This document shows positions 24 through 36,300 of a stretch of DNA of 64,000 nt, in pieces. Made by a program: the position numbers and the translations under genes. The stretch is taken from the NCBI GenBank assembly GCA_003344405.1, contig NOWV01000011.1, positions 248,001 through 312,000 on the forward strand, written 5' to 3'. Each line of letters begins with the position of its first letter. Position 1 is the first letter of the stretch. Under the pieces are notes generated by a model. That model was not told the origin of the DNA and made no database searches. It worked only from the letters and a program-made list of their open reading frames with translations. This DNA comes from Trichoplax sp. H2 (Eukaryota).

Positions 24-3000
24 TTAATCTACTTTCACTACGGAGTAGATCTTTCTAACAAATGTGTAACACGATAAGAAGCCAACGGTACCTAAAATTG
101 TTTTAAAAATATAAAATGAAAGGTATCAAGATGATTTGCAAGAACCAAGAATGATTACGTTTCCTTACCAGTTAAGAGGAAGAACAGCAGCGTCATGAGT
201 ATGGTATAACCAAAAAAGAGGAAAGTACTTGCACCACCAGTAATAGATAAATTTGAAATAAAGAAGTGTATTGAATAAATGAATAGATAGATAGCTGTAC
301 TACCACTTGTTAGAAATGATCGCCACCACCAATGATAGTCCTATTGCAAAGTAGAAACGTCAATGTATAAGAGTCACACTCTTGCTAATTCGTGTACGAC
401 TGTCGTCAATTTATTAACTTATTTATCATGATACCACATGAATCAAATATATTGCAAATATTTTCCGTAATCATAGATTTTGTTAACCTCTGAACAAAGA
501 TGGAAGTAGCACAATAGAATTGTTGTCTCGGCGCATGTTACAATCAAAATAGAAAATACCAAGAAGAGAAAACCAAACATGTAATATATTTGATGTGACC
601 TATAATTAATGGTAGCAATATTATCATTCAGTAACCATGCTATACTGTTTATTGAAGCTACATATCAATAATTTCAACGTACTGCTTACCATAAGCTATT
701 CATAATGAAAAACATTTGAATAAAGATACATCCAAATGGTAAGATTCCTCCCATGAGAATGCACGGTAATGGTCTAGTGAAAAATGGCTATATACGCGTA
801 ACAAAAGCATCAATATAGTCAATCGCTTATGCTATTTGATAGGAACTACCATAGAGTAATAACTGAATAGCTTACTTGCTCAGGTATTTGTCTAGGTATT
901 TGATTTGTTCTGACAGGATTTTCGATAGTCTATAAAGTAAAAATGGATTTATTGATGTTACTCCCATAAAACCTTACTATAATCTATTTTTCTTAAAAGA
1001 AGATAAAATAGCAACACTGGCATATTACCTTTTTCCTAAAACCAAAGAATGCTCCTACAAAAGTCAGCGGTGTTGAAACACCAAACCTACGTCGGACAAA
1101 TACCAACACGATGAAATATTCCAATATTACATCAGATTAGAAATCCAGTAAGCAAGACTAGGGGTGAAAGTTTACTAACGAGTAACTATTGTAATGTGTC
1201 ACACTGACCATAAAGCAATTAAGGCTATTAAAGTGCCAAAGGGAACAGCTGCAGATGATCGCCTTGCCCACATCACTAGGTTCAATAGGAAGAAGATTGC
1301 AAAGCAAACACTAATGAAAAATTAAAAGCAAGTATTTAGTGTTAAATTGGAACAGGGTGAGTTCATATTTATTAACCAAATAAAAAAGTATTTCTTGGTA
1401 ATCTTAATTTCTGTTAAATACAGTTATGTAGAATATGCATACCCAGGTATGAAAAAGGCAGTCATGATTACGTTAGTTTTCCATTTTTCTCCACCAATTG
1501 CTGCAAATCATAATTATCAACGGTTTAATTAATATGGCTACTTTTACGCCAACTGTTTTAGCTTTGCCTAGGATAGATATTAAATTTACCTTTGTAGATC
1601 CTAGCTGAAATATATCCTGCACAACATCCCAAACAGACGTACAAAACCTACAATAACGAATAGTGTCATCAAAAAAATTACAAAAGCAGGCATAAATCTA
1701 TAAATAAATACCGTAGCGCAAGTCATGAGTCCACCACGGTTAGCAGGAGATAAAAATCCCAAGCATGCAAAAACTGTAAAGGAAAGAAAGTGCAATATTA
1801 TTGCAATGACAAGAACAAGTGAAGTCATATGATTGTCTTGGACTTACACAATGTTACCACGGTCATTATAAAAGTTTGTGATCCAGTGCCAACTAAAACC
1901 GACAGCAACATTCCTCTTTTAGGAGGTCTAAAGACATCGCCGTGAACTAATTTCCAACCAAATTCTTCTTGTGCATCTTCCTAAAATTTTTAAAAAATCA
2001 TTGTAGATTTCAAGTCAATGTCTGCAATATATTAGTCTCAAATGTCAGAATAGAAAGAAACTAACCAATGAATCCAACTGATTATAACGAGCAATATCTT
2101 TATGTAGCGTTCGTAACAACACCATAGCAACCATACCAGAAAGGAAGAGAACGATAACCACAGAGTTGATAATACTGGAGACGTTAGCAAAAATAGAAAA
2201 TACCGTAAATACCATTGTAATAACACTTTAATAGTTAATCTATTACAACGGGCAAAGTACTGTATCTCACCTGAACCACTGAATATTCGAATGGGGCATA
2301 GAATCTAGAATGTAATCCCATCGTGAGGCCCACATCTTGCTATTATCTCTCTATAAGATACCACGAGCAATAAAGATCACTTAATATGGACTACTGTCTG
2401 TCAGTTATCAATCACTAACTCTTAACCATTAGAAACTCTGAGACCCTCAGGGTTTCTATTTAGCGTCAGTGAAAAAACAAGATAATCTATCTTAATATTC
2501 CCTTACGTGAAATGACACGGAATATGTATAGACTAGGCTGATTCGATCCTTTGACTCTTCACGAAAGCTCCAGGGATTTTTATTATTACAATCAATTTTT
2601 CCTGGTTTATGGTCAATACTAGAATAAGAAATGAATTTCGCAACATGAATTACCATCAATAGTGAGATAAGGCATCGTTTGTTTACAAATAGTAACATAC
2701 ACATAGGTAATGTCTACATTACCTTCGTAGCTGAACTTTTGCAGACAGTAGACGAGCTCCATTTGGTTTAAGCTTCTTCCCGTCAGAACTTTCCTGTTGG
2801 TCGCCATCGTTATAAGTAATTCGTATATCGATATGATTAAAGATGAAATACTGGTTTTTGCCATAAAATTTTTCCTATAAGAGTAAATATTGTCTATAAG
2901 TATATTGCTTTGATATCATTTATTTAAAATACAGATTTTAAGCTTTCAATACTAGGAACTAACTGATAGAACGCAGGCTTTTTTCCTAGCACCGTCATGG

Positions 3001-6000
3001 TCAACATAGCACCCGATAGGAAATCCAATTGAACAGTATCTTTTATTACCTTCCACAGGATAGCACCAAGTAACGGGCATATTATCTATAATCCTGAAAT
3101 ATTAATCATGAAAATAAATCATAAAGAAAATCGTGCCATCTCGAACAGTCATTGCACGCCAATAATTGATTATGTGTAACAGTACATAACAGATAATTAT
3201 AATTCTTTTCATCTTGAACTAACCAGTGATTCTGATAATTTTTAGTGATTCCTTTTCTTAGCATATTTAACTTGGCTGCGTCTTGATTGTTCTTAGGATT
3301 ATACTCTTTGATACACACTTTAGAACATGTGATATTTTCTTTGAAATTGATCTGCATGTAATAATTTGATTATAAGTATAACTAACTTAACAGATCAGGT
3401 TAAGTAGAATAATAGAATTGGATTATGAAACTTACGTTGTAAGGCGAAGGCCGAATACGTTCACCAAATAATACCTGTCGTAAAGAATATAAGGTATTAT
3501 TGATGTACATTTATTTAGGTAAATGATAACAAAGTATGATGGAGTAGTATAATTAATAACGTAACTAACCGTATTATTATCGCACTATAGTAATATTAAA
3601 GATACTATACACCAATTTTGAAAGGAACAAAGAAAGACTGAACATGGATCAATGTACGCGTAGTACAATTTTATTTTAATTAAATTAATGATATCTAGCA
3701 AGTTCTTAATCTTAATCTGCTATATGAAGTAAATTATATGTTGATAAGCATGCATTTATGTTTCGTATTTATAGGAGTATGACTTTATGAGATGAGAGAA
3801 GTTCTATAACAAAAAAAAATCAAAACGCAGAATTGTACAGTACTGTTTAGTTACCGTATATATAAGTCGTATCAACAAGTAGGAAAGGTAGTTTGGTTTC
3901 AACTTGATAAAGAACGAAATACTAATATCTCAAATCTCACAGAAAAACTTGATATTATCTTTGTAATATTTAGGGTAATATTTTCATGTATCAATCTGTG
4001 TCTTTTTATGTTTTAGTTAAATAAAGCGATAATCAAAAACAAGGCAATCAACGAGCAGTTAGGTACAGAAAATAAAGGATACTAGCTGTAAACTTATAAT
4101 ACCATCTACTACTAAAATGAGCATTCATTTTGAACAAGTCATTCTATAAATCCTGGGAGACCTGAGTAACTCAAGGTAGGATACTCGCATTATGAAATTT
4201 GCAGATTTTTTTAATGGTAATCTACGTCTTCACCCCTCCAACGAGGAACATATGTTTACCTCTGCAAGGTATAACGAAAGTACTATAGAACTAACCAGCG
4301 ATCATACCAAATAGTTCCCAATATTTTTATAGTAAATAGATTGGTGAAATAATCTTGTGAAATTAATGGCTAATTTACCCTTAATGTAGTCGAATCGGTC
4401 TATAAACATGCACTAATAAAACTGGAATTCTTAAAAGTAGTTGTACGCTATTTATTGTATAGTCAGTTGGTGAAAATTTCAGTCTAATGTCAATAATGCT
4501 TGTTTCCTTAAACGATTTTCAATGATACATAATTCTACTTATCAATGATCAACAGATCATAAATAATATGTATACTGTAGTTATAATTACGTCATTTATG
4601 CAGTTGGAGTGTTTTTTGTATTTACTTCGTTAGTAACAACTGCAACTGGTAGGAATGATCGACGAGACGATTTTTAATCATCATTACTAAAATAGAAAGT
4701 TAGCACTATTCCTAAATTTAGACGAAATACAAAAAAGATACTGAAGATGTAATAATCGGACACTGTGAACTGGATACGATGGCTGCAATGTACATGCAAC
4801 AGTTTAATAAGTTAAAAAGAGTGCCTACTGTACGTCAGATTTAAAGTCTACGGAATGAACTTTCAATTGACAAGCAATAAAAGATGGCAGTTAACGGGCA
4901 TAATGATCCGTAAAAGTCAGTGTCGAGTTTCTCATGGCCACTTAAAATCTCTATGGTTGACATTCTAATTCGTTATTGAAGAGGGTTAGGTTATGGCTAC
5001 TTCTTATACAGAATAAAAACAATGGAAAATAGGCAAGATGATGATGTGGTGCTAATTCCAGAACGATATAGAAGTTATTGAGATGATTGTTGATAGTGAA
5101 TGCCATCAACTTATTTATTAATAAATGATATTCACCTACGGCAACTGAGTATTTATGATGATGAAAAATTATAAGGACAACATTAATATACGTAGTTACC
5201 TGTCCTAAATTTTCAACAGGAGAAGTTGTTATATTGCTACTACAGAAATCGAACCTAAAACAAGGGTATAATTAGTTCATTAATAAATTAATTATATACG
5301 TATATAAAGTTACAGTTAGTGCATATTGTCAGCAGAGAAGCCGCTTCAATATGACAATTACAACGATAAGTAACATTGATTTTGGTAAATTTTAAAATTG
5401 AATAGCTGTATCATTGCGTAAAGCATACGACAGTATGACTGATCTATAGACTAACAAGCGGTAATAAGACTACGATGCCTTTATTATGCACTATTAAGCT
5501 TACGATGAATATTCATAAGGTATTACAGATTCTGAACTATCCAATCGGTTCACCATAATGGGAATGTCAGACTTTAATATTGCCATTTCATCCAAGATGA
5601 GATAGGGGATGAATTCGTTGATTAAATTACAGATAGAAAGGATAATAAAATTAATTAATACGCAAGCATTTAGTGAAAAAAAGATCGAGACAAAGTAGCA
5701 GGTACTTAGTGTGTTTACAATGATTATGGTTGGTTAAATAGTGATAAAATAGCGCAACAATTTGGATAAGTTGTAGTGAAAATCGAGTGCTAAACGAGCT
5801 ATTGATTTGTCTTATGGCTATTTTGTACTGTCAATAACAAGTCATCTTTTCTGCCATTTGAGTTTACTTATGGCTATTGAGACACAGCTATGTATCAAAG
5901 ATGAATGCAGTAAACTCCAAAATCAACTATTGATTTAGCACGTTCAACTTGTTATTGCTATCATTCTAAGTTATGATTTTATAAATTATATAGTAATGGA

Positions 6001-22050: not shown

Positions 22051-22761
22051 AGATTGATAAATCGATAAGTAGTAGGAGTAGATTTTACTCATATGAGTAC
22101 TTATCATCTCTAAAAAAAAAAGACAATCGCTTGCTTATATCACTAGTTCTGTTGTAAAGGCGGACTACACATCCTGCAGCATCAGTACAATATTCTGTCT
22201 AGTTATATGCAAGGTCATACTCAATTCATGCCGTACTTTATCATGCACTATAATCATATAAATGATTTTCGCTTGTACGTGTACGAGTTGATATATTACA
22301 TAACGATGTTTAGTAGAGAATAATGAATTAGTAATCCTCCATAATTTAAATCATAATAAATATTTATAATCGAAGATCAAACATCACAATTTCTCGGTTT
22401 AACAACACCGTACAACTTTAAAATCGATCAGAATAAAGTATATTCTATAAACATGCAATATTAGGCATACACTTGTTCAAGCTATTCAATAAGCGCAGAG
22501 CCAAAAGGTAACTCAAAGTACAATATTACCGTAAATATGCCGAAACTGAAGTTTTAACATTAAAAGCGGATAAAATATAGAGAAATGGAAAAGACATTTA
22601 TAAATTAAAGTAACAGTCTCTCTCAACATAATTACAATCGGAGTACAAATAGATCGGAAACAATAATAAAGAATGTATACTCATCATCTGATTATATATT
22701 ATATATTAAACATGATCAAATCTTTGGATTGTATAACTTTTAAAGAATTGGTATTACTTGG

Positions 22762-25700
22762 TCAATGACGGACAACATTGTGGCGACTTCGATTGTTAGT
22801 AGTATACATTTCGATCAGTCGTAGGACTTCGGAATCTTCAGCATTACGCGGATCAGCTATTGAATCAGTTACAAATACACTCGTCAATTGCAATCATGTG
22901 CTAGCAATGACATTGATAATGAAGTTGTCATCAATGGGTCTAATTCATTATCGCTTTAAAGTTAATTCATTGCAGCATTAATATCAACAAATTTAGGTGT
23001 ATTTATATCGACAATGTTATAATCCTACATTTGGTCTACCGGCAGAGTTAACATAGATAAGAAATTCGAATTATGGCCTAATTTAATTTCTTTGCAAGGT
23101 TATGCATTAATAATATCATTTCTTTTATCTTACTTCGACTATTAAGAGATTCATCGTTTGCAATGTTGTTACCAATAACTGATTTCGTCTTTCCTATTAA
23201 CAATATAGTTATCATGAAATATCAGAGATTTAATTATTATGTATAAGCTAAATGTATCATAAAATTGTTAAATAAAACGCTCATGTTAATCATTGCATCA
23301 TAGGTACCCTGCTTCTTGCGAGATGAAGGCAAAAACTTTCTAGAATCGTTAATGTTTTCCTAAAAACAAACACAATTTTATCAAACAAAAAATTAATAAA
23401 GCTAGATCAAAATACAGCACCAGTGTTATGTAGAAGAAGATCTGCTCATAACTTGAAGCCTTAATCTTAGATTTACCTCTTTTACTAGTAATTCTACCGA
23501 AGTCTTGGCCAGTCGACTAGGTCGTAGCATCTTAACATTCCACTTAACTGCACTACCATTTGAATCGATAGCCTGTAATAGAAATAACGGTTATAAGTAC
23601 AAAGGCAATTGATTTATAAGATTTCAATTTCTATCTGACGTTTACAGTATAAGTATAGAAAGAATAGGCAGCTCCATACCTGATCGATTACCTCTTCTCT
23701 ACCTTTTATATCATCATCAATAGATAACTATAATATAAAGATTTTAGACGTAGCAAAACCAATTTTATTTTATGCTCTTTTGGTCGATTTAAAAGAAATG
23801 AAAGATTATATTACAAATCGTGGATAATTCTAGTGAACTTTAGTCCGACTCTACAGTATAATTCTAGGTGTAAAATTTATCAAAATACTTTACTTTTTCC
23901 ATTTCATGATCAAGTTTCGTACTCCGCTGTCCCTGATTTATGATACGCAAAATTATATTAGTTGCATATCGATAGTGATCAATTTCAAATTTCGGTACAA
24001 AATTTTGATTTATTAATATTACAACCTCGTTTATAGTAGTATCTGTTCCTTTTCCGTCAAATTTCTAGCCCAGTTAAAAGAAAAAATAGTTTAATCGTTC
24101 CAAGAAAATTAATTATGACTACACTGATGCTAAATAAACAATGATTTAACGCATTGCAGGAAAATCGTTACGAGAAAGACGCACATTATATTTCATTTAA
24201 TAACAACAGTGAACACTATGAAAAGGAATTAATCTTAATTTGCTAATATGATAAAATTTCACTGTTTTACTTACATAAGTCAAGCGATTAAGAAGAGATA
24301 ATAAATTTTTCGCATCGTTTATTTCCAAGTCAAAGGAATAAGACACAGTTTTATCTACCAAAAATGTAACTCATCTGATTAGGTAGAGTACACCACTGAT
24401 AATAATTCTTGATACCTATCGTAACTTTTGCAACTGCATACAGTACCTTCTATTTCGATGCTTGTGTAAGATTTATTTCCTGAATTACGTAACTTAGTAT
24501 TTACTTTAAAATTTGCCGATATCGGAATATCACCCTGTAAACCGGCGCAAAAATAAAGTTAAATATCAAAAGATATTGGAAAGGGATGTCTATCATTGGA
24601 ACCATGAGACAAATGTTAGCTATTGATCTCACCCGACAATAGTATCCACTTAATTTTTCAACTACACCTACAAGTGCAACAGCCGTATCAAAAACCAATA
24701 CGTAACGGTCGCTGGCCTATGATACAGTATTGTAAAATAATACATGTATATAGTTATCATAGAAGATTTGTAAGTCAGAAATAGAAAATAATAGAATAAA
24801 TAATAGTATTGTATAGCACTGTATTTATGCTAGACCTCAGGATCATTCATTTGTGTCTTGCACATGAACATTGGTAAGCCGTATCTACCCTTGAGCTGAG
24901 TAAAATGATGTATGCAGCATTAAAAAAATTAGAATAGTATTTCCCGAACAAGTAACCAAGCAATTTACAAGCGATACCGTACAAGTTAATAGAAATCACC
25001 GATCAATTTAAAGTAAATAATATTATTTTATTCTATCATAGTTAAAACTTTAAACTATTATAACCACAAATACTATGCGTGTATACTGCCATACTATGAT
25101 ACACATGCAGAGAGCAAAGCAACAATCACGCTAGATAATAAACTCATAGTTTACATTGCAACCATTACAAAATTGCAATGATAAGTTATCATGCCATATT
25201 GGAGCAAAGAGATGAAGTGATAAAACAAACCATATGCTGTCCAATTTATACAGCGAAATTATAACTTTACTGCTACTATCATTAAATTTTTGATTACCGG
25301 TATCAAAGTGATATAGCTAATTTAGAAAGAATCGTCAAATAAAGATACTATGCGAATCTCTAAAATAAGAGGTAAATCTTACAAAAAAAGTAGCTCCCTT
25401 TTATTATACATACGTTTTCATCCGGAAAGCCCTCGAGCTTCCCTGTAATAATGTCTGTTTCAATTTCTTTATTCTTCCTTACTATAGCGCATGATTTCTG
25501 TAATTGAAGATCCATCAAGGTTATAAACTAAATTACTATTTTAAGTATGATACTATAATATATAAATATTTTAAATAATCTAACAAAAACAATGACTATA
25601 AGGAATTACATTAATATCAGATAGCAATTCAAATGCTTCGAGTAATTTATTTCGTCCTGGATGATGATCCTAATAATAAAGACCATTGCATTAAAAATTT

Positions 25701-28700
25701 ATCTTGAAAACCGCTGTAATATAATCTATCAAATTAAACCTACTTCTACACTATTTAGTAGCTCTCTGAGTTTATTTGGGTACGCTTCTAAATGACGTAA
25801 AGGCTAAAATGGGCAAGGAATGTGAATGAAAATTACAAATTTTGAAGCATTAATGATATCAATGAATAGCATATTTTTCCTTAGTCCTTACAATGCTAAT
25901 GCAAGAGGTCACATTTGAGGACGTCTCCATTTTTGGTAACTGCATCTTTTCTAACAACGCATCCAAAGCTTCCCTGTTAAGGCGAATAAGAAAATGATCA
26001 GCTGCTATAAAATTTTAATTACATAATGCTAAAGACACATTACTACGAATGACGAAGTTATACCATACGTACTTATTCTGAATAATTGTTGAAGCTACAA
26101 CGGGATGACAACTAAAGTAACTTTTATAATTTTCCTCCAACTGTAACAATTATGTTCACTGGTTTCAATATGCGATAACATCAAGCGACTAAAATTCAAT
26201 TAATTGGTAAACCTCTTTACGATTTTCCAACAAAAAACTACCAATAGATTGATCATTTTCATGGAGGCTAGATTAAAGGAACAGAAATATTTACATAGAT
26301 TAAATAAGATTACGAAAACTAGTAGTATATCCAAAGTGTTAAAGAATGATCAATACTTACGCAATATTTTTTGTCAATCTAACAATAAAGGCCTCGTGCA
26401 ATATTTTAATAGAATCTAGGCTTGTATAAAGGGGTTGAAATTCCCCGGTAAAAATACTAATATATAAATAGTTTTATACAATATTTCCATTAGTCATATT
26501 GCATCCAGTCAATTACTCAAATACGCTAAACACTAACCTCCTTTCAGACTTTAACGGTAGTAAACACTGCGATAAAATATTCTATAGTCCATACCAAAAT
26601 TAATTTATCATATTATTTATAAAAATTTTTTAATAAAATTATCAAATTTTTTACTAACAAATAGCATACCTTTAATTCCTGAACGTAAACCTTTTCATTC
26701 GAGAGCAAATCCATCACCAACGACTTGTAGTACTGCCCGACTGTCCTGCGCTTTTCTTTATGATCTGGAAGTACTGCTATTTGCAGCATTTACGTGAATA
26801 TCATATATTTATAATCAGGAATCAATAACTAGCAATTACTTAATGCATAGCTTATTCAACAGATAGTGACGAAAGGATTATTAATTATCAATGGTAGAAT
26901 AGGTTGTATTTCTTTATAGTTTGAAAATGTCCTGCTATCCAATCTAACATATACACATATAACACTTACTAAAATGGAAAGTACATGCAATCCTATTTAT
27001 ATTTCGAAGTTAAAATTTATAGGATCCTTACGTTTATCACCTAGAACTGCGGATACACCAAGTTCTTCAGGTTGTTGCTTTGCTATAAAATTTAGGCTTG
27101 CAGACTAAAGAAAATAGAGTTTAAAATCATTATTTAAGGATATATTTACTAATAGACATCATGTGATTATTGTGCCTTACTGCCGTTATACGTATGCCCG
27201 TAAAAGTATCATAATTATAGAATTAGTTATCCTTATAAGATACTAGTGACAAAGTTTACCTTTCTTCTAAGCAAGTTTTCATTAGAAGCCTAAAAAATAC
27301 ATCAAAAGTATTATTTAACGACACAATATGTATAATTGCTACATAAAAATAATAACAAGCAATGAAAAGGTTTACTCGGTATTTTGACGATTCGTCTGTT
27401 ATTGTATGGCTCATGGTCTATGAAGTATAAACAGTAAATATCGATTATGTTTAACTTATAGCAATATATAAAAGCTTAACTCTATAAAGCATTATCTTGA
27501 CTAACCTCTTTAATTTTCGCTTTACCAGATAACTGACCGTAAACATTCAGTTTCTTTATAAGGTACACACGAATATTCAATATGAGATTGTATTGATCAA
27601 GTGATCGTAACAAAACTACCATTTACGGGTGATTAATACTAACGTCGTTAAGTTTCTTTTGTAAGATTCTCAGTATCTGTTCAAAATCTTTAACATCAAG
27701 GATATATGTCTCGTAGCTTTTATTATCTGTAGCAATAACAACGTTCCCTTAGTAAATCAATACTTGCCCATACTTGTTTCTACCATAGATACTTGAGGCA
27801 AGAATCCTTTAATCAATATATTTTAGTATCCTTCTTGTGATAAAACTAAACATAAAGCAGTCTTACCTCTGATTTCAATAGCACATTTATAGCCATCGCT
27901 ATTTTCATCAAGCTTAATCACATCATTTACTACAGTAATCCCAAGATCTGGGGTTATACTAAACGTACCCTAATGAAAGAAATAAGGTTTAAATATGTCT
28001 TATTATAAGCTATCATGGGTGTTAGTGCTTAAATCAATTTCTATTCCATATACGCTGGACAAAATTTATTTATAACCTCCAAACAGTATCCTTGAAATCC
28101 AGAACCCGCACTAACGAGCACAATCACTTTATCGAATATCAATAAATAGCGTTCCTTAGCCTAAAATAATATCAAAAAAAGGTAGAACAAAGAATCACAA
28201 CGGTTGTATCTCCAATGGGTATTTTTTTCGAAATTAAAAAATCTTGTACGGTTACTGTTAGTTAACTCTGTAGCAGAGATAGCAATGGTTGTATATGCTA
28301 TATAAAAATTAGCAGAAAAGAAGTAAATTTTATAGAAAATATTAAAGTTTACAATCTGCTTAGTTTTATTTACAGATACTCTATGTTCAATAATATATCC
28401 AGACATTAAAATGATAATAAAACGTATGGCCAACCTCGGCGGCTTTAATCCATACAGTGCATATGTAAATTGCTTTTCCGTAGGTGTGCGCTAACTATTT
28501 TTAGTTCATATATTTAAAAGCGATTAGATAAATGACAACTAGTATTATTTAATCAATCTATAGAGAAAGGTATAATTGCAGCTTACATATTTTCCTTCAA
28601 AACCTATCAATTTTTTAGTGACAATATCAATTTCAGTTTCTTTAGCTTTTCGCAATTTTGTACAAAGATTCTTTATCAAAGTAAAATGGTAAGTACGGTT

Positions 28701-31700
28701 AAGATGAAGGATGTTTTTGGGTCGATTTATTCCTTAGTAATTGAATAATATCAACTTACAAACAATTCGGAAAATACTACTAACGCATCCCTCAATGCTG
28801 CTTTGCATGGATGTCCATCCTATAATTAACAAGATATCAAACGTTTCAACAGTGGTTTTAACATGAATTAAAATAAAAGTATTTCTCTAAGATTGCAGCA
28901 GCAATCAAAAGCAATATTAAATAAATAAATACCCTAATGTTTTCTAAGAGTCCTCCCAGTGCTTTTAGATACGCCTCAAAATGCTTCAAAGGCTATGATA
29001 AGAAAAGAACTTTTAATTATAAACGTGTCATAATACGTATTTTAACACGAACAAATCATGCTGTTGGTAATTAGTGATATTGCTGAATAATACCATTTCT
29101 ATGCAGGTAGCAAAGGTTATGCCTTGATGCGTTGGTAATCGCTTATTTTCTATAAAAGCATCTAACTTAATCCTTAATAAGAGTACAGCCCATTATTAAT
29201 ATAAGATCTATTAAGTAAAGTGACATGTAATGTAACAGTTTAAATGATCTGTTGGTGCTACCAACACACCTATTCCGTCGTACTAATACCGAAGCGACCG
29301 CGAAGTTGATAAAGTAAAATCGGTAAAAAGCTTCGAACTGCAAATGTTGATAATAACATAGATTAAAAATATTCGTTAATACAAAGATATGCCAATATGA
29401 TGTACTGTATAATAACTAGATTGAAAAGTAATCGAAATAATCACCTGACGCAAATAATTGAGAAAGCAGCTACCAATAGATTGCTCGTTATTGCTGCGCC
29501 TATTGCATATAGATTAAAAGAATATTGATTTTATTGCATTTATTATTGAGTTTAAATTTTATTTGAAAAACTACGCTATAATATAATTTTAATTAACTTT
29601 GGTATATAACCCAAGTCTACATTTAAAATTTAGGTCGTGATTGTTGTATTACTGGCTTGAACAATAATACTACCGTAGTAAGAATTTCATTAGAAGACGA
29701 GTTATCGCTATCAATATATAATACTACAGCTCAAACTTCTATCTCGGTGTATATTACCGTAGTAAAATTTTATATGAATACATAACATTTTGCCACTTGA
29801 ATTAATGAAACTCACGCTGTTTCATCCTTCAATCTTTTCAAAAATCCCTCATGTATTTTAATTAATGATTCAAATTTACCGCAAACGGTTTCAGAATCAC
29901 CAACCGGTAGCCTACAGTAGTTAGTACATCGACACCAATTAATTTAGAATAACCATTTGTATTTATTATAGATATATACGATATTATTGATACGTTAACT
30001 TACACTTCTTCTTTTTTAAAAGGTATAAAATAATACTGGTAAATGTCCTGTTGAAAAAACGTACAATAAATACATATATATATATATATATATATAATAA
30101 TACAATAAAGGTTTACAAAATTACATAGCAAATTAACCTTAACTAATCACTAACGGCGTCATCACTGGATTACGACGCTCTAATACTTAATGTCAAAAAA
30201 TTACCCGTAATTTTTCAATAAATTCCTCTTCTTGTTTTACGATATCTCGGACAACAATACCATAATATTGGCCAGAAGTATTTTGTCTGGGCAATGTAGA
30301 CGATCTGACGTTACTCACTTGATTGAAATCAGAAAAGGAAATTATCTATGGTGAGCTATGATTAAATGGATGCTTGATCTATTAATTATGGAGCCAAATC
30401 CAATAAAACTGATATTACCAGAATAACTACTTGATATCTATTGTATTGTTCTATACAAGCGTAAAAATATGCATTTTAACAATTTTCTCTACTCATAAGT
30501 AAATTTAGATACGAAAATCAGTGTACTAGTAACAAAGGTACAATGCTGTCAATTTACGTAAGACAGATGTCATCTTTTAATTGTTTCAACATAAACTCTT
30601 TCCAAACGTAGTAAAGACGTATATTAATAAAACTGGAAAAAGCCATAATTCAACATTTACTGTGCTGATTGAGAAATACGTTAGCAAAAAAAGATTAAAC
30701 TTAAACAGTTTACGATTTTAAATCTAGTACATTTTATTTACCAAATAGCAATTAGCATTACCTTTAACCTCAGTAACATGATTAGCTGGAAACCATCCAT
30801 AGCCATCCTTATCACGTAATTTACCCTTCCACCAATCTCTATCAGGTTGCTAGAAATATCAATATTGTTATATGAAAAGATGTAATTTTATTGTTTATCA
30901 AAATATAGAGCTACTAATTTCGACAGTAAGGTAATCACATTAATTATGCTACACACGTACACGGGTTCCCATTAATTCATAGTACCGTACAATAGGTAGT
31001 ATACATTAATTAAATTAAAATCTTTATAGTTATTAAAGGAATGTCGCAAAATTATCTTAATCAAAAAAGGCCATCAAATTAAACGAAAATTTCACGAGTC
31101 TGTTATATCAAATTAAGTAATAAATGTAATTTATGGATTTGAATTATTATTTTCTACGTTAACTAAATCACAGTCTTACCTCTATAATTTCAATATAATC
31201 TCCCTTCTTAAAGGATAACTAAAACATGAAAGAGAATTATCACATGTAACCTAATTAACCGTTTATATCATCTACCATCTGGTATCTTCTTCTATTCTAG
31301 TACTATGGTCAATGCATTGAATGTTTACAGCGAATAAAGAAGATATTTCAAAATTCAGATTATCGCAGCACAGAGTGGACTACACCTTTCTTTCTTAATT
31401 ATACGTGCATACATAGATGTAATATTACTAGCTTGCGAATCGGTGGGATCAAAAACCAAAATAGTTCATTACTAGGCAAAATTGCCTGTACTTATTATTA
31501 TCTTCAAGTTAAAAATTATTACTGTAATAACTATAATATGAAGGCTAAAGAAAGGCAAATGCAATCATTTCAATATCAGCCTGCCATTTCTTGTCATGTT
31601 GATATCAGCATCATCTTATTTAAGAAGCCAATCTTTGAATAGTATCAAACAAATCTTACATATCTTCGACTTTCTCTCTAATACAATACAGTGCTGTAGA

Positions 31701-31945
31701 ATCAATGCTACTGTAATCTACAGTATACTAGTATGACAAATGTAAGCATTTGTTGAATTATGTATGTTGTATCTACTCGTAGTGATCAACTTTAATATAA
31801 CATCTAAAAGGAAGCATGAAAAATTGTTGTACACCTTTTACGTTCTATGCGTTCGATTAGAACTTACATCACTATTGCTATCAGCACTGTAATCATGTTT
31901 CGCTTTAACCAAGCGGCGTTTTCCTTCTTTTTCAATTGATTTCAT
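22762..31945 (-). CDS. ARHGEF7: PIX/COOL-family Rho GEF (ARHGEF6/7-like) with architecture SH3-DH-PH-DH-PH-GIT-binding motif; more than 30 small exons
   Basis: Start exon 31945-31868 MKSIEKEGKRRLVKAKHDYSADSNSD, then LSFKKGDYIEIIE and QPDRDWWKGKLRDKDGYGWFPANHVTEV (SH3). DH1 begins GQYYGIVVRDIVKQEEEFIEKLR; PH1 has AKERYLLIFDKVIVLVSAGSGFQGY. DH2 begins GQYYKSLVMDLLSNEKVYVQELK; PH2 has ASDRYVLVFDTAVALVGVVEKLSGY. Then WNVKMLRP (cf. PIX WSLSCLRP) and a final exon EDSEVLRLIEMYTT (cf. beta-PIX GBD EDAQILKVIEAYCT), with TGA at 22764-22762. Confidence 0.88.
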
Positions 31946-33391
31946 GATCAGCTTGGTTAAGCAAGTGTTCTATGATAACCGCTTGTTATTGTTTGTTTTA
32001 ATTTCCTACTATCATCAATAAGAAGAGTCATTCTAATTAATAGAGGAAGCAGAATCAACATTTTAAATTGACGGAGAAGTACTGATGTTTATTTTTGTAT
32101 TTTTACGAGTAAATTATCTTAACGACTATTGTAGTCATTATGTTAAGATAATTTTGAAATAATTACAGTACATACTGTATTGTTATCATGATTAAAAATG
32201 GATGATTTTGATCAAAGGATAAAAATACGACGTACGTACTTTAGGTAAGCGTATACGTCTAATGTCTGAATCCTCTAGTAGGATATCTTGACAATCTAGA
32301 TACATTTGAAATTGGTATGGAATATAGAATAACACGTTTATTGATTGACAGTAACATTCAATGGGATGTGATTGAACTTTAGGCATTAGCATGCACAAAA
32401 TATAATTACTAAGCAGATAATTTAAATTCAACAGTTCTAGAATTGAATACTAATCCGATATTCATTATCAATCAAATCATATGCTAATTTAATCTCGTCA
32501 AAGTGGAATTACTTTGCAACATATCGAATTTGTCGATGCGAAGAGCTCGTTGGATCTGTAGCAAACTACTGTATGCATATCTCGCTAAGCGTCTTTCAAT
32601 CGACCGATCCGATGCGTCCATTGAAAGACTGTTTTTTTTATCACTGATAATGAAATGATCGATACTGTACTGTAGTAGCTGAATTGAACGTCTATCTCAA
32701 TCTTACCCTTCTTTCCGTATAACCGCCCAATTTCAATATTATGTTAACGGTAAGGATGAAGGAATAGTTTACGTCTTGGACTGGGTTGTCTAATGGAGGA
32801 GAGAAATTTGGCAACTTTTTAAAGCCGGTGAAATTTATTTCCCTGCTGGAACATTCATCCAATGCAGTCCACTAGTACACCACTGTACTGTCATATCATA
32901 ACAGTGGACTCAGCCATTGCAGCTCACCTGCAAAACATGACACGATAACGGTAAAATCATCTTCTACAGCCAAACACTATTGTCAACAGTGCGGTACAGT
33001 ACAGTACATTCACCTATGCAGCCGCATCATATTCAGTATTGTACTGTACACTGTACTGTACAGTACAGTATGATGGTATTCAGTTACAGTACTTTGCACT
33101 GGTTCCTGGTACGGTAAATGCCATTCGCTTGTGTTGTACTCTGTACCATGGACTCGTGACACAAACACTGACAGACAGCCTGAATGCTATTTTTAGTACA
33201 GTAATGCCGTTACTGCAGTCACACCAGACGCCGTCAATGGCCCGTCATTCTCTAGGCTGAAACGGACGTACCGAACTTTAAACTCACCCGTGTGTGAAAA
33301 GCTTTGTCGTGGCAGTAATCGTGTCAGCCCACTCAAGCCACGGGTCCACAAGCTGCCGAAAAAGAGAGATAACCCATTTGCCAAGTTCAAC

Positions 33392-36300
33392 ATGGCTTCT
33401 CAACAGAAGAAACTGGACGAAAATAACTTGAAAATTTTACGAAGCCTCGTTTCACAAGAGCATAATAAACGTTGCTTTGAATGTAGACAGCGAGGCCCAA
33501 CTTATGTTGATGTAACTGTGTACTCGTTTGTCTGTACGATGTGCAGCGGTTTACTGTGAGTATCGTTTTTGTTTCATGTAATTCGATGCATTCTTTGTAC
33601 TTGACTCTGTAGAGAGGAGACCACATTCACTCTTCTTCATTGTAGCCTAGCTGTCTTTGACATTTTCACTGAATTTTCTATTTGCTAACCAGTCAATGCA
33701 TCATCTGCTTGAATGTACAAAACTCATCATTTGCAACTTTGCCTTTTTATTCGTAGACAAGCAATATTCCTTTTATCATAATGTGGTGATAGCTGTAGTT
33801 GGAGTTGTTCGTTCTTTTTGAGATTTATGTCTACTCTATCCTGTTATTGCACTTTGATGAAATTAAACTTGTAAATCATGACGCTCACCTATGCTGGACC
33901 CTAGCGCCATTGATTGATTCTACCCTTTTAACATTTATTCCTCACAATAAGTACATTGGGGGCAATCGTGTAGTGCCACTTATTTTGAACGAGTGTTTTA
34001 TTAATTCAATACCGCACAGCAAACCTTCTCTAAAGTACAATACACTACTGAGCAGTAAAAATTAAAGTTATATTATATCGTAGTTAACCTATCAATGGCA
34101 ATATTTCGTAGCATCATCCATTATTTCAACGCTGTCTACTGCGTATGGTGAGCCTTTGCTATTTAAATTCGTAAAATAGAATACTTTGTATAAAGTAGTA
34201 ATCTTCATCAAAGTCATAGGGAGGATACCAAGAATTAGCTTATTTAAATTGTACTAGACTACGCTATCTCGTCCATACATTCACTATTTTTCCATAATAA
34301 TGATATACAGTCAAAGATACACTATATCGAAACTTTCTTACTACAGCATTACTAAGTCAATTTTATCGTGTGCTTTATTACGTTCAGTAAGACGTAATTC
34401 TTGCTCCCAAAATTGGAATATATCTCGATGAACTTTGATTCGGTCTGAATGTACAGTACAGTACCTCATTAAGTTAAACGGAGAAATCCCAAGTTATCTT
34501 GAACCGTTATTATGACAACTTGCACTAGTAGAATTAAAATGAACTAGCCTTCTGAAGTCGTAGACTTAGTAAGTGAATTAAAGCATTGAAATTAGGAATA
34601 CCACCTAGAATTCCTTTCTCGTTGAAGGAATTCGAGTAAACACTAGCCCTTCCTGTTTAACTCTTCAGCGGACTTTCAATGACGTCAAAATGGTTGAATA
34701 TACAGACTGTATACAGTACAATTTTACAGTCCATACTATGAACATTATTAGTGAATCACGCTTTCATTTTGTCAAGCTGGTCTGTGACCCATTCATGATG
34801 GTGTGAGAAAAGAAAACTCGGCTAAAATGCCCTGCGTCCTATTTTTATAGATGCTCGATCATAAATTCATCATACTTTCGTTCTTTCGTGAATATAAAGT
34901 AAAGTTTAAATGAACTAAGGAATGGAATGCGAAATAGGCCCGAGCAAAGTAATGTGTCATACTCTACAGTACAGTATGCAATTATCTCACCTTGCCGAAA
35001 GTTCAGGAGTCCAGTGCAATATGTACAGTATGTACTGGACAGTACAAAACTAGAGAGTAATGCTATACTAATATTGACAAGTCGTGTGAAGGTTAAAATT
35101 AAAATAAAAACAAAACTACACTACAACTGTAACTTCAGTTCATAGCACAATATACAATATTGTAGTATCCGTCTTCCTATAGCCATAGTACAGTACTGTA
35201 CTGTACAGCGCTTCCATGTGATGTAATTCAACGTACTGTACCATACCGTGCTGTGCCGTACCATACCGTACCATATCATCCTTATGGTGCTTTCCGCCAA
35301 ACCCTTCATATTGCCAGTAGAGTTGCTAAAGCAACTTCTCCAGAATGATTTATCGTTTGATTTCTTCTATTTGACACTATTAAGTTATCGAGTACATCCA
35401 GCGGATTATTTTGCATTTTAAGTTATGCATACCTTAAATAACCATCATATTCTCATAACGAGCAAATGCAAATTTAAAATGCTACGCTCGATTCAGCAGT
35501 TACTAAGATCTCAAGACCTTCCTATTGGAAGACATGATTCCCATGATGATAATATAGAATTATGGAGTAATAGAAGTAAATTTACCAAGAAAGTACTAGT
35601 ATTACAGCTATACAACGCAGTAATAACTATCTGTATTTCTTGCATATATACGATTAGGATTAATCGTTTTAAGTAGATACATTCTTACATCAATAAATGT
35701 GCTTTACTCCTAAAGTTATTGACTAAGCAATCAATCACTCATACTATTATAATTATACTGCAACATACGTATTGTACTGATTGCTTTCTATCGTGCAATA
35801 CTCCGAATTACTATAAACCGTAGCAAGATAACGCAGTATACTGTACTTGACCATGTATTTCAATGCGTGAAGATGGATAGCATTGTAAATCTATATAAAA
35901 CTAACTTAATGAATACATCTTTATATTTCTTAAAAATGATTCTATCTGTAGCCGTGGCCTTAACCCACCTCATCGCGTTAAGTCGATGTCAATGACTAGT
36001 TTTTCCGCTGCTGAAATGGACAACATTAAGTCTTACAAAGGGGGCAATTTGGTAAATTATTTTGTTCGCAGCTTTAGATTTGTAACTTGTATTCTTAATT
36101 GAACAGTCTCCAGTACCACTATACACTTGTAAATAAACTTTACGCCTTTGATTGTAATTAATTCTTACAGTAGCAACTTAAAAAACATTGTTTTCAGAGT
36201 TTTCCTATTCGTTACGTTTCAAGTAATACTACAAAATATCAATATTCTGTAATATAGTACCATAATCGATACTACACGTACTGTACTTGACGTACATACA

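Follow-up and report, generated by a model that had tools for sequence, protein, structure and literature searches.

We report here the analysis of a PIX-family Rho guanine nucleotide exchange factor (GEF) gene in Trichoplax sp. H2, located in a window of 64,000 nucleotides (nt) of contig NOWV01000011.1 (positions 248,001 to 312,000; all coordinates below are those of the window). The gene lies on the minus strand at 31945..22762, and a splice-aware reconstruction divides it into 40 coding exons with every intron following GT-AG. Its coding sequence of 2784 nt translates, letter for letter, into protein P0001 plus the stop codon; P0001 is the 927-residue NCBI entry 'Rho guanine nucleotide exchange factor 7 [Trichoplax sp. 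H2]' and maps to the window without mismatch. The domain order of the protein is SH3, DH1-PH1, a linker of 64 residues, DH2-PH2 and a weak GIT-binding-type region. On the whole, the locus is a single PIX (ARHGEF6/7-type) gene of Trichoplax in which a DH-PH cassette of 13 exons underwent an ancient head-to-tail duplication, within the placozoan lineage; both cassettes are of PIX identity, and both are intact, in frame and spliced into one mRNA.

The duplication is written in the exon structure of the gene. Module 1 (DH1-PH1, residues 69-398) occupies exons 4-16 at 30317..27644, as delimited by the exon model, a Pfam RhoGEF match at residues 90-260, the Protein Data Bank (PDB) entry 1by1 and an ESM Atlas model; module 2 (DH2-PH2, residues 463-785) occupies exons 21-33 at 26776..24275, and is recognized from a second RhoGEF stretch, from its relatives, from the Atlas model and as the sister of module 1. 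The 13 exons measure 113, 44, 96, 55, 68, 79, 60, 60, 84, 60, 84, 103 and 83 nt in module 1, and 107, 44, 96, 55, 68, 82, 60, 60, 84, 60, 84, 88 and 80 nt in module 2. Nine positions agree exactly, among them the leading pair (60 and 84 nt) of the four exons that make up the PH part. Both modules follow one series of intron phases, with 1 before each module and then 0, 2, 2, 0, 2, 0, 0, 0, 0, 0, 0, 1, 0. An earlier reading of the bare sequence (the original prediction) had proposed two DH-PH modules with matching exon boundaries and, in the DH part, matching exon lengths; the exon model agrees, and extends the equality of lengths to two exons of the PH part. The ten peptides quoted there are all present on the minus strand where they had been placed, flanked by AG...GT, except that in one of them, 'NILSQCLLPLKSERR', the last residue is a read-through into the intron. 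At the protein level, the two modules share 98 of 317 residues (31%) with 6 gap positions in a BLASTP comparison (177 bits, E=1e-57), a resemblance far beyond chance. No similarity between them was found at the nucleotide level, showing that the duplication is old.

A direct head-to-tail joining of the copies would break the frame, because the cassette starts in phase 1 but finishes in phase 0. Between the modules lie four linker exons, exons 17-20 (27032..27553, residues 399-463), which measure 48, 42, 30 and 73 nt, and the resulting 193 nt (3x64+1) restore the frame. They lie at 27553-27506, 27417-27376, 27289-27260 and 27104-27032, have GT-AG introns, and lead in frame from phase 0 to phase 1, in accordance with the linker foreseen in the original prediction; both the exon model and joints in RNA contigs include them. 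Neither the N- and C-terminal regions nor the remaining protein resembles the linker (best E=0.54).

Transcript evidence comes from assembled contigs. Among the 20 runs listed, a share of about 0.2-0.3 of the sampled words was taken as fitting spliced mRNA, because the coding sequence makes up 30% of the stretch, and contigs of four runs from four studies (X4, X6, X7 and X8, with X7 recorded as RNA) were compared with the locus. Such contigs are blind to transcript starts, transcript ends and rare isoforms, and the joints cited here are those listed. In X7, X6 and X8, belonging to three studies, one contig per run carries all joints from PH1 through the linker to DH2, namely 27553>27644, 27417>27506, 27288>27375, 27104>27260 and 26776>27032. 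These joints have CT..AC ends (GT..AG on the minus strand), match the exon model exactly and continue into both modules; the splicing across PH1 and DH2 that a single gene implies is thus seen to run via the linker exons. The X8 contig of 3449 nt spans 22408..32954 and is composed of 449 nt (last exon and 3' untranslated region, UTR), 2689 nt (exons 1-39), and 63 and 248 nt of 5' UTR. Its length equals that of the 40-exon model with the UTRs, showing that no exon is skipped. The final 248 nt of this contig represent a non-coding 5' exon at 32707..32954 on the minus strand, which has a GT donor, and the 63 nt belong to exon 1 directly before the start codon at 31945-31943; in-frame stops precede the ATG both in exon 1 and in the RNA-supported non-coding exon. 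At the other end, the 3' UTR occupies 22408..22761, where the X8 contig is unbroken across 22408-22856. In the X6 contig of 2826 nt, the listed pieces are placed as expected for unskipped exons 39 to 1. X4 gives short unspliced pieces only, with zero joints, and is uninformative either way.

These contigs bear directly on the view that the double protein is an artefact of annotation or assembly, in which two adjacent single-cassette genes, or isoforms with one cassette each, were misread as one protein. Gene predictions do disagree, since a second protein, P0002 ('uncharacterized protein TRIADDRAFT_55213 [Trichoplax adhaerens]', 811 residues), skips exons 17, 18, 23, 34 and 35 and ends differently, and starts and ends of transcripts are invisible in the contigs, among which X8 shows loose ends at 24019, 24399 and 22693. 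However, contigs of three studies contain in-frame GT-AG splices leading from PH1 across the four linker exons to DH2, their lengths match the full model with zero skipped exons, and the protein has a single SH3, a single start codon context and a single GIT-binding-type region, while the modules have no nucleotide similarity able to mislead an assembler. We regard such an artefact as largely refuted and very improbable.

P0001 and P0002 were both retrieved by searching with one exon of module 2, which they contain at 100% identity. P0002 maps to the window with one mismatch apart from the skipped exons; in the shared exons a single residue differs from the H2 model (Val/Ala, in module 2). Among the exons that it omits, 17, 18 and 23 are present in the RNA contigs according to the listed joints, and its C-terminal end is a read-through of the exon 38 donor. 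P0002 appears to be an incomplete prediction and not a biological difference. As for X8, single contigs depart from the reference at 24019 and 24399 (introns, C-terminal part) and at 22693 (3' UTR), possibly owing to alternative splicing or to chimeric contigs.

The assignment to PIX is supported by domain content, sequence searches, structures and phylogeny. Exons 1-3 (30762..32008) hold the 5' UTR part mentioned above, the start codon and the SH3 domain; on the whole protein, Pfam finds this one SH3 at residues 14-61 (SH3_1, E=2.2e-14) and two RhoGEF stretches, the SH3 lying immediately N-terminal to the DH (RhoGEF from residue 90), as in PIX. An exon-by-exon Pfam scan gives a match for the SH3 exon only, the exons being too short for such a scan. 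An exhaustive HMMER search with module 2 returned 228 proteins at E<=0.001, of which the best are PIX proteins, the top foreign match reaching 123 bits and 32% identity; against these proteins, module 1 reaches similar scores. The top 59 relatives have one RhoGEF stretch each, and 42 of them carry Pfam families found only in PIX (RhoGEF67_u2, betaPIX_CC or RhoGEF67_u1), the other 17 being mostly SH3-DH(-PH) proteins. A further 74 lower matches were scanned, leaving out 16 shorter than 300 residues; 27 of these 74 are other GEF types (e.g. Tuba-like, FYVE- or C2-containing) and 47 are PIX-like or fragments. Altogether, none of the 106 PIX-like relatives scanned has a second RhoGEF stretch (104 show one, two show none at the threshold), and the double-module PIX is not a widespread architecture already present in the relatives. 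A homologue search with residues 464-785 returned, among 5246 candidates, only the two Trichoplax proteins. The corresponding search with residues 1-398 was useless for finding PIX relatives, because 59 of its 61 matches are bird SH3D19 proteins, brought in via the SH3. Two non-PIX matches of module 2, P0143 and P0166, also have two RhoGEF stretches each, one of them with a BTB domain and the other with a PH domain, showing that tandem DH exists beyond Trio/Kalirin and the Trichoplax PIX.

In structural comparison, the closest solved structure to P0001 is 1by1, the DH domain of 'PIX' (E=8.3e-19, residues 85-279), followed in the PDB search by 2pz1, 4mt6 and 3jv3 with E=1e-15 to 1e-11. The ESM Atlas holds a model of P0001 itself, with a whole-protein predicted template modelling (TM) score of 0.39 and a mean predicted local distance difference test (pLDDT) of 0.61. 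In this model, residues 69-398 and residues 464-785 both match ARHGEF7 clusters best, with TM 0.82 over 313 residues and 0.80 over 311 residues respectively, as against 0.61-0.66 for collybistin, Vav, Cdc24 and Tiam clusters. The predicted model supports a complete DH-PH fold in both modules.

For the phylogeny, 76 PIX-like and 26 non-PIX rows covering the cassette were kept from 149 matches and 47 partial ones were dropped; the outgroup of non-PIX GEFs was labelled solely by Pfam architecture. In a quick tree of 104 rows, the modules are sisters (support 98 in the Shimodaira-Hasegawa approximate likelihood-ratio test, SH-aLRT), their pair neighbouring the whole of the remaining PIX rows (90) and being separate from the outgroup (96). 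A careful tree built on 41 rows, hand-chosen to span the clades (27 PIX, 12 outgroup and the two modules), again pairs the modules as sisters (ultrafast bootstrap, UFBoot, 100 / SH-aLRT 99), inside a PIX clade supported at 100/100. PIX with both modules is split from the 12 non-PIX GEFs at 100/100 in the careful tree, and from the 26 at SH-aLRT 96 in the quick one. Capsaspora and Sphaerothecum take the basal positions among the PIX rows, while corals, amphioxus, shark ARHGEF6 and cockroach ARHGEF7 are found inside the clade. The branches of the Trichoplax modules are long (1.1 and 1.4), making long-branch attraction a formal worry; shared exon structure, physical adjacency and 12 shared derived residues support the sisterhood independently of the tree. 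DH2 thus groups with DH1 in the PIX clade and not with a non-PIX family, and the claim of one PIX gene with an old intragenic duplication of the whole cassette is upheld by exon model, RNA contigs and tree alike. The stem below the two modules, at 1.18, is similar in length to either tip, from which we infer, roughly, that the duplication took place well after the placozoan split and long before the present. The two basal rows are P0183 (Capsaspora) and P0161 (Sphaerothecum), CH-SH3-DH-PH proteins of unicellular relatives of animals; their position at the base of the clade shows that the PIX architecture is older than animals.

The C-terminal region is encoded by exons 34-40 (22762..24064, residues 786-927), in which the exon model, Pfam RhoGEF67_u2 and motifs point to a GIT-binding-type region before the stop codon. 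The match to RhoGEF67_u2, the Pfam family of the GIT-binding region, at residues 837-919 is below the cut-off of 26.8 bits (12.2 bits, E=0.24) and is collinear with profile positions 13-96. Two motifs, W....LRP (residue 838) and EDSEVLRLIEMY (residue 903), occur once each after the last PH; motifs of these two types are found in 38 and 41 of 122 PIX-like matches respectively, and in none of 27 non-PIX GEFs or 59 SH3D19 proteins. The second motif follows the pattern ED..L.(V/L)IE.Y, which is PIX-specific, and a profile of it from 24 relatives matches P0001 at this site alone, with a score attained by 1 of 2000 shuffles. We take the stretch near residue 903 to be the GIT-binding helix. Therefore, from the combination of one N-terminal SH3 and one C-terminal GIT-binding domain in the original prediction, the SH3 is found as claimed, but the GIT-binding domain is a candidate at sub-threshold score. 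A search for a CH domain in P0001 and in the window gave no match (best E=0.5); CH is present in alpha-PIX and the long beta-PIX forms and is not universal in PIX.

The protein stops 12 residues past the GIT-binding-type motif, with its stop codon in the contig-supported last exon. The coiled coil betaPIX_CC has no Pfam match at E<=10 in P0001, and a coiled-coil profile derived from 18 relatives likewise detects no such domain, whether in P0001 or across the window translated in six frames (best E=1.5, on the wrong strand). The domain is found in many PIX-like relatives, though not in every one. An excerpt of PMC4503440 gives the PIX order as CH-SH3-DH-PH-GBD-CC (GBD being the domain that binds GIT, and CC the coiled coil) and holds that the coiled coil mediates di- and trimerisation. 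Consequently one may imagine that the tandem cassette replaces oligomerisation, i.e. that the coiled coil was lost and two DH-PH units in one chain form a built-in pseudo-dimer. We consider this unlikely, for a contact between the cassettes is purely hypothetical, 17 of the 59 top PIX-like relatives are also without coiled-coil or u2 family (many being partial or divergent) and yet have no second cassette, and the loss of the coiled coil and the duplication are not necessarily linked. Its more daring form, that quaternary structure was swapped for primary structure, with one cassette of an intramolecular DH-PH pseudo-dimer docking active GTPase and the other exchanging, seems to us just as improbable. 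If true, it would mean that an oligomer-dependent choice of GTPase has been fixed in one chain as a convergent Trio-like tandem GEF, and would amount to a natural experiment on the role of PIX oligomerisation in setting specificity.

We then turn to the state of the two catalytic domains, which was compared in an L-INS-i alignment of 104 rows, with 76 rows as the PIX set; the columns compared are those we assume to be the GTPase-contacting residues of other Dbl GEFs. The Glu of conserved region 1 (CR1) is kept in both modules, as E98 ('QE') in DH1 and E490 ('NE') in DH2, so that the canonical 'TE' reads just as the original prediction had it. G, Y, R, G and F at near-invariant PIX columns are also kept in both. 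Where at least 95% of PIX rows agree, which is the case at nine columns, module 1 keeps six and module 2 keeps eight, DH1 being without the His of 'HP' and without the Glu of the 'ELxR' stretch in conserved region 3 (CR3). With conservation in 70% or more of PIX rows as the threshold, there are 66 columns, at 12 of which both modules have the same non-consensus residue. As judged from the alignment, both cassettes are unusually derived, and the shared changes predate the duplication; DH2 does not look the more degenerate copy, and if either is degenerate, it would be DH1.

With fold-core residues and the CR1 Glu kept in both, the two cassettes seem constrained and are taken as functional GTPase-binding units. 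We therefore favour, as the probable reading, a placozoan PIX-type protein whose two functional GTPase-binding cassettes have divided ancestral tasks, neither of them being a dead relic. Following what is known of PIX proteins, the SH3 would recruit a PAK-type kinase and the C-terminal helix would bind a GIT-type partner, while the DH-PH units, two per chain, would engage GTPases of the Rac/Cdc42 type. The division of tasks between them may concern different GTPases, or exchange in one and regulatory binding in the other.

Several observations weigh against this reading of two functional cassettes. The Asp that is invariant in PIX (76 of 76 rows) is lost in both modules, HPD having become HPC and HPG, and at the CR3 'xxKY' position, where 67 of 76 PIX rows have Lys or Arg, both modules have Ala. 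Among the 66 conserved columns, module 1 matches the consensus at 28 and module 2 at 31, in comparison with 82% for the median PIX row, which places both among the most divergent PIX DH-PH sequences; canonical exchange activity could well be weak or absent in both. The sole other placozoan sequence, P0002, with its one differing residue in the shared exons, is too close for measuring purifying selection. Moreover, of the domains expected on the spliced protein, the one SH3 and the two RhoGEF stretches are matched by Pfam but the PH domain is not, in either module, at E<=10 in the whole-protein scan, so the case for the PH part depends on how it aligns with PIX relatives and on the Atlas model, with its low mean pLDDT given above. 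Finally, the contigs are compatible with extra isoforms or with an internal start or promoter.

The same residues invite another explanation, in which one cassette is a pseudo-GEF, that is, a DH-PH that folds but has no catalytic activity and is retained for regulation, autoinhibition or GTPase docking, exchange being left to the other. The difference of six versus eight near-invariant positions, with the two losses in DH1, speaks in this direction, and a divergent copy retained for so long would fit an altered role. Yet the CR1 Glu is present in both modules and the CR3 losses (Lys to Ala, and Asp) are common to both, so that neither stands out clearly, and the matches to the PIX consensus are similar in the two. 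On sequence grounds we hold the pseudo-GEF to be possible but rather doubtful, and keep to the reading of two functional cassettes with divided tasks.

Two further observations concern contig depth. At 33036-33074, a stretch of about 30 nt made of TACAG/TACTG-type units has a very high summed contig depth, of about 400 to 4000, in all four runs, with many loose ends on either side and low agreement, indicating a short motif that recurs across numerous transcripts or loci; its appearance is that of a dispersed simple repeat. Across 32718-33585, the contig depth is much above that over the PIX gene, and a loose end at 33555 is common to X6, X7 and X8, suggesting that a strongly expressed neighbour gene has a splice junction there, with its next exon beyond the stretch compared.

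Placozoans move and contract without muscles or nerves, which makes their Rho-GTPase regulators of interest for early animal cell biology. PIX is a conserved hub of Rac/Cdc42, PAK and GIT signalling, and the presence of two cassettes kept very long in a PIX shows that a Trio-like tandem GEF can arise independently by exon-block duplication, with the intron phases and the 193-nt linker documenting how the frame was preserved. Two PIX DH-PH units that diverged within a single protein also form a natural pair for probing GTPase choice, and possibly offer a test of whether multivalency can replace coiled-coil assembly. Public annotation already carries the protein under both species names, and what is new is not the gene model but the recognition of its architecture; its value is comparative and mechanistic, and it is not a new kind of system. 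In a full-text literature search, we found no paper on a double-cassette PIX, and the supplementary tables of Fort & Blangy 2017 may list it; the main text of that paper counts 22 placozoan RhoGEFs and mentions tandem DH for Trio and Kalirin only.

It remains to place the Trichoplax protein among known systems. The nearest is PIX/Cool itself (ARHGEF7 beta-PIX and ARHGEF6 alpha-PIX), with which it shares an SH3 directly before the DH, membership of both cassettes in the PIX clade, the nearest solved and predicted structures (1by1 and the ARHGEF7 clusters), and the motifs W....LRP and ED..L.(V/L)IE.Y after the last PH. It differs from PIX/Cool in having two DH-PH cassettes instead of one, in that coiled coil and CH are not detected, and in that both DH domains are without the 'HPD' Asp and the CR3 Lys/Arg. 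The SH3-DH-PH GEFs ARHGEF4/Asef, ARHGEF9/collybistin and intersectin have the same domain order and give the next-best PDB matches, but their sequence scores are below those of PIX, and ARHGEF9 reaches TM 0.61-0.65 as against 0.80-0.82. Trio, Kalirin and UNC-73 resemble the Trichoplax protein in carrying two DH-PH cassettes per polypeptide, which in Trio and Kalirin act on different GTPases. Unlike them, the Trichoplax protein has no Sec14, spectrin, Ig or kinase match in Pfam, where SH3 and RhoGEF are the only hits, and its DH domains are each other's closest relatives, belonging to one subfamily of PIX type. This shows that its tandem architecture arose independently of Trio, the two being analogous and not homologous.

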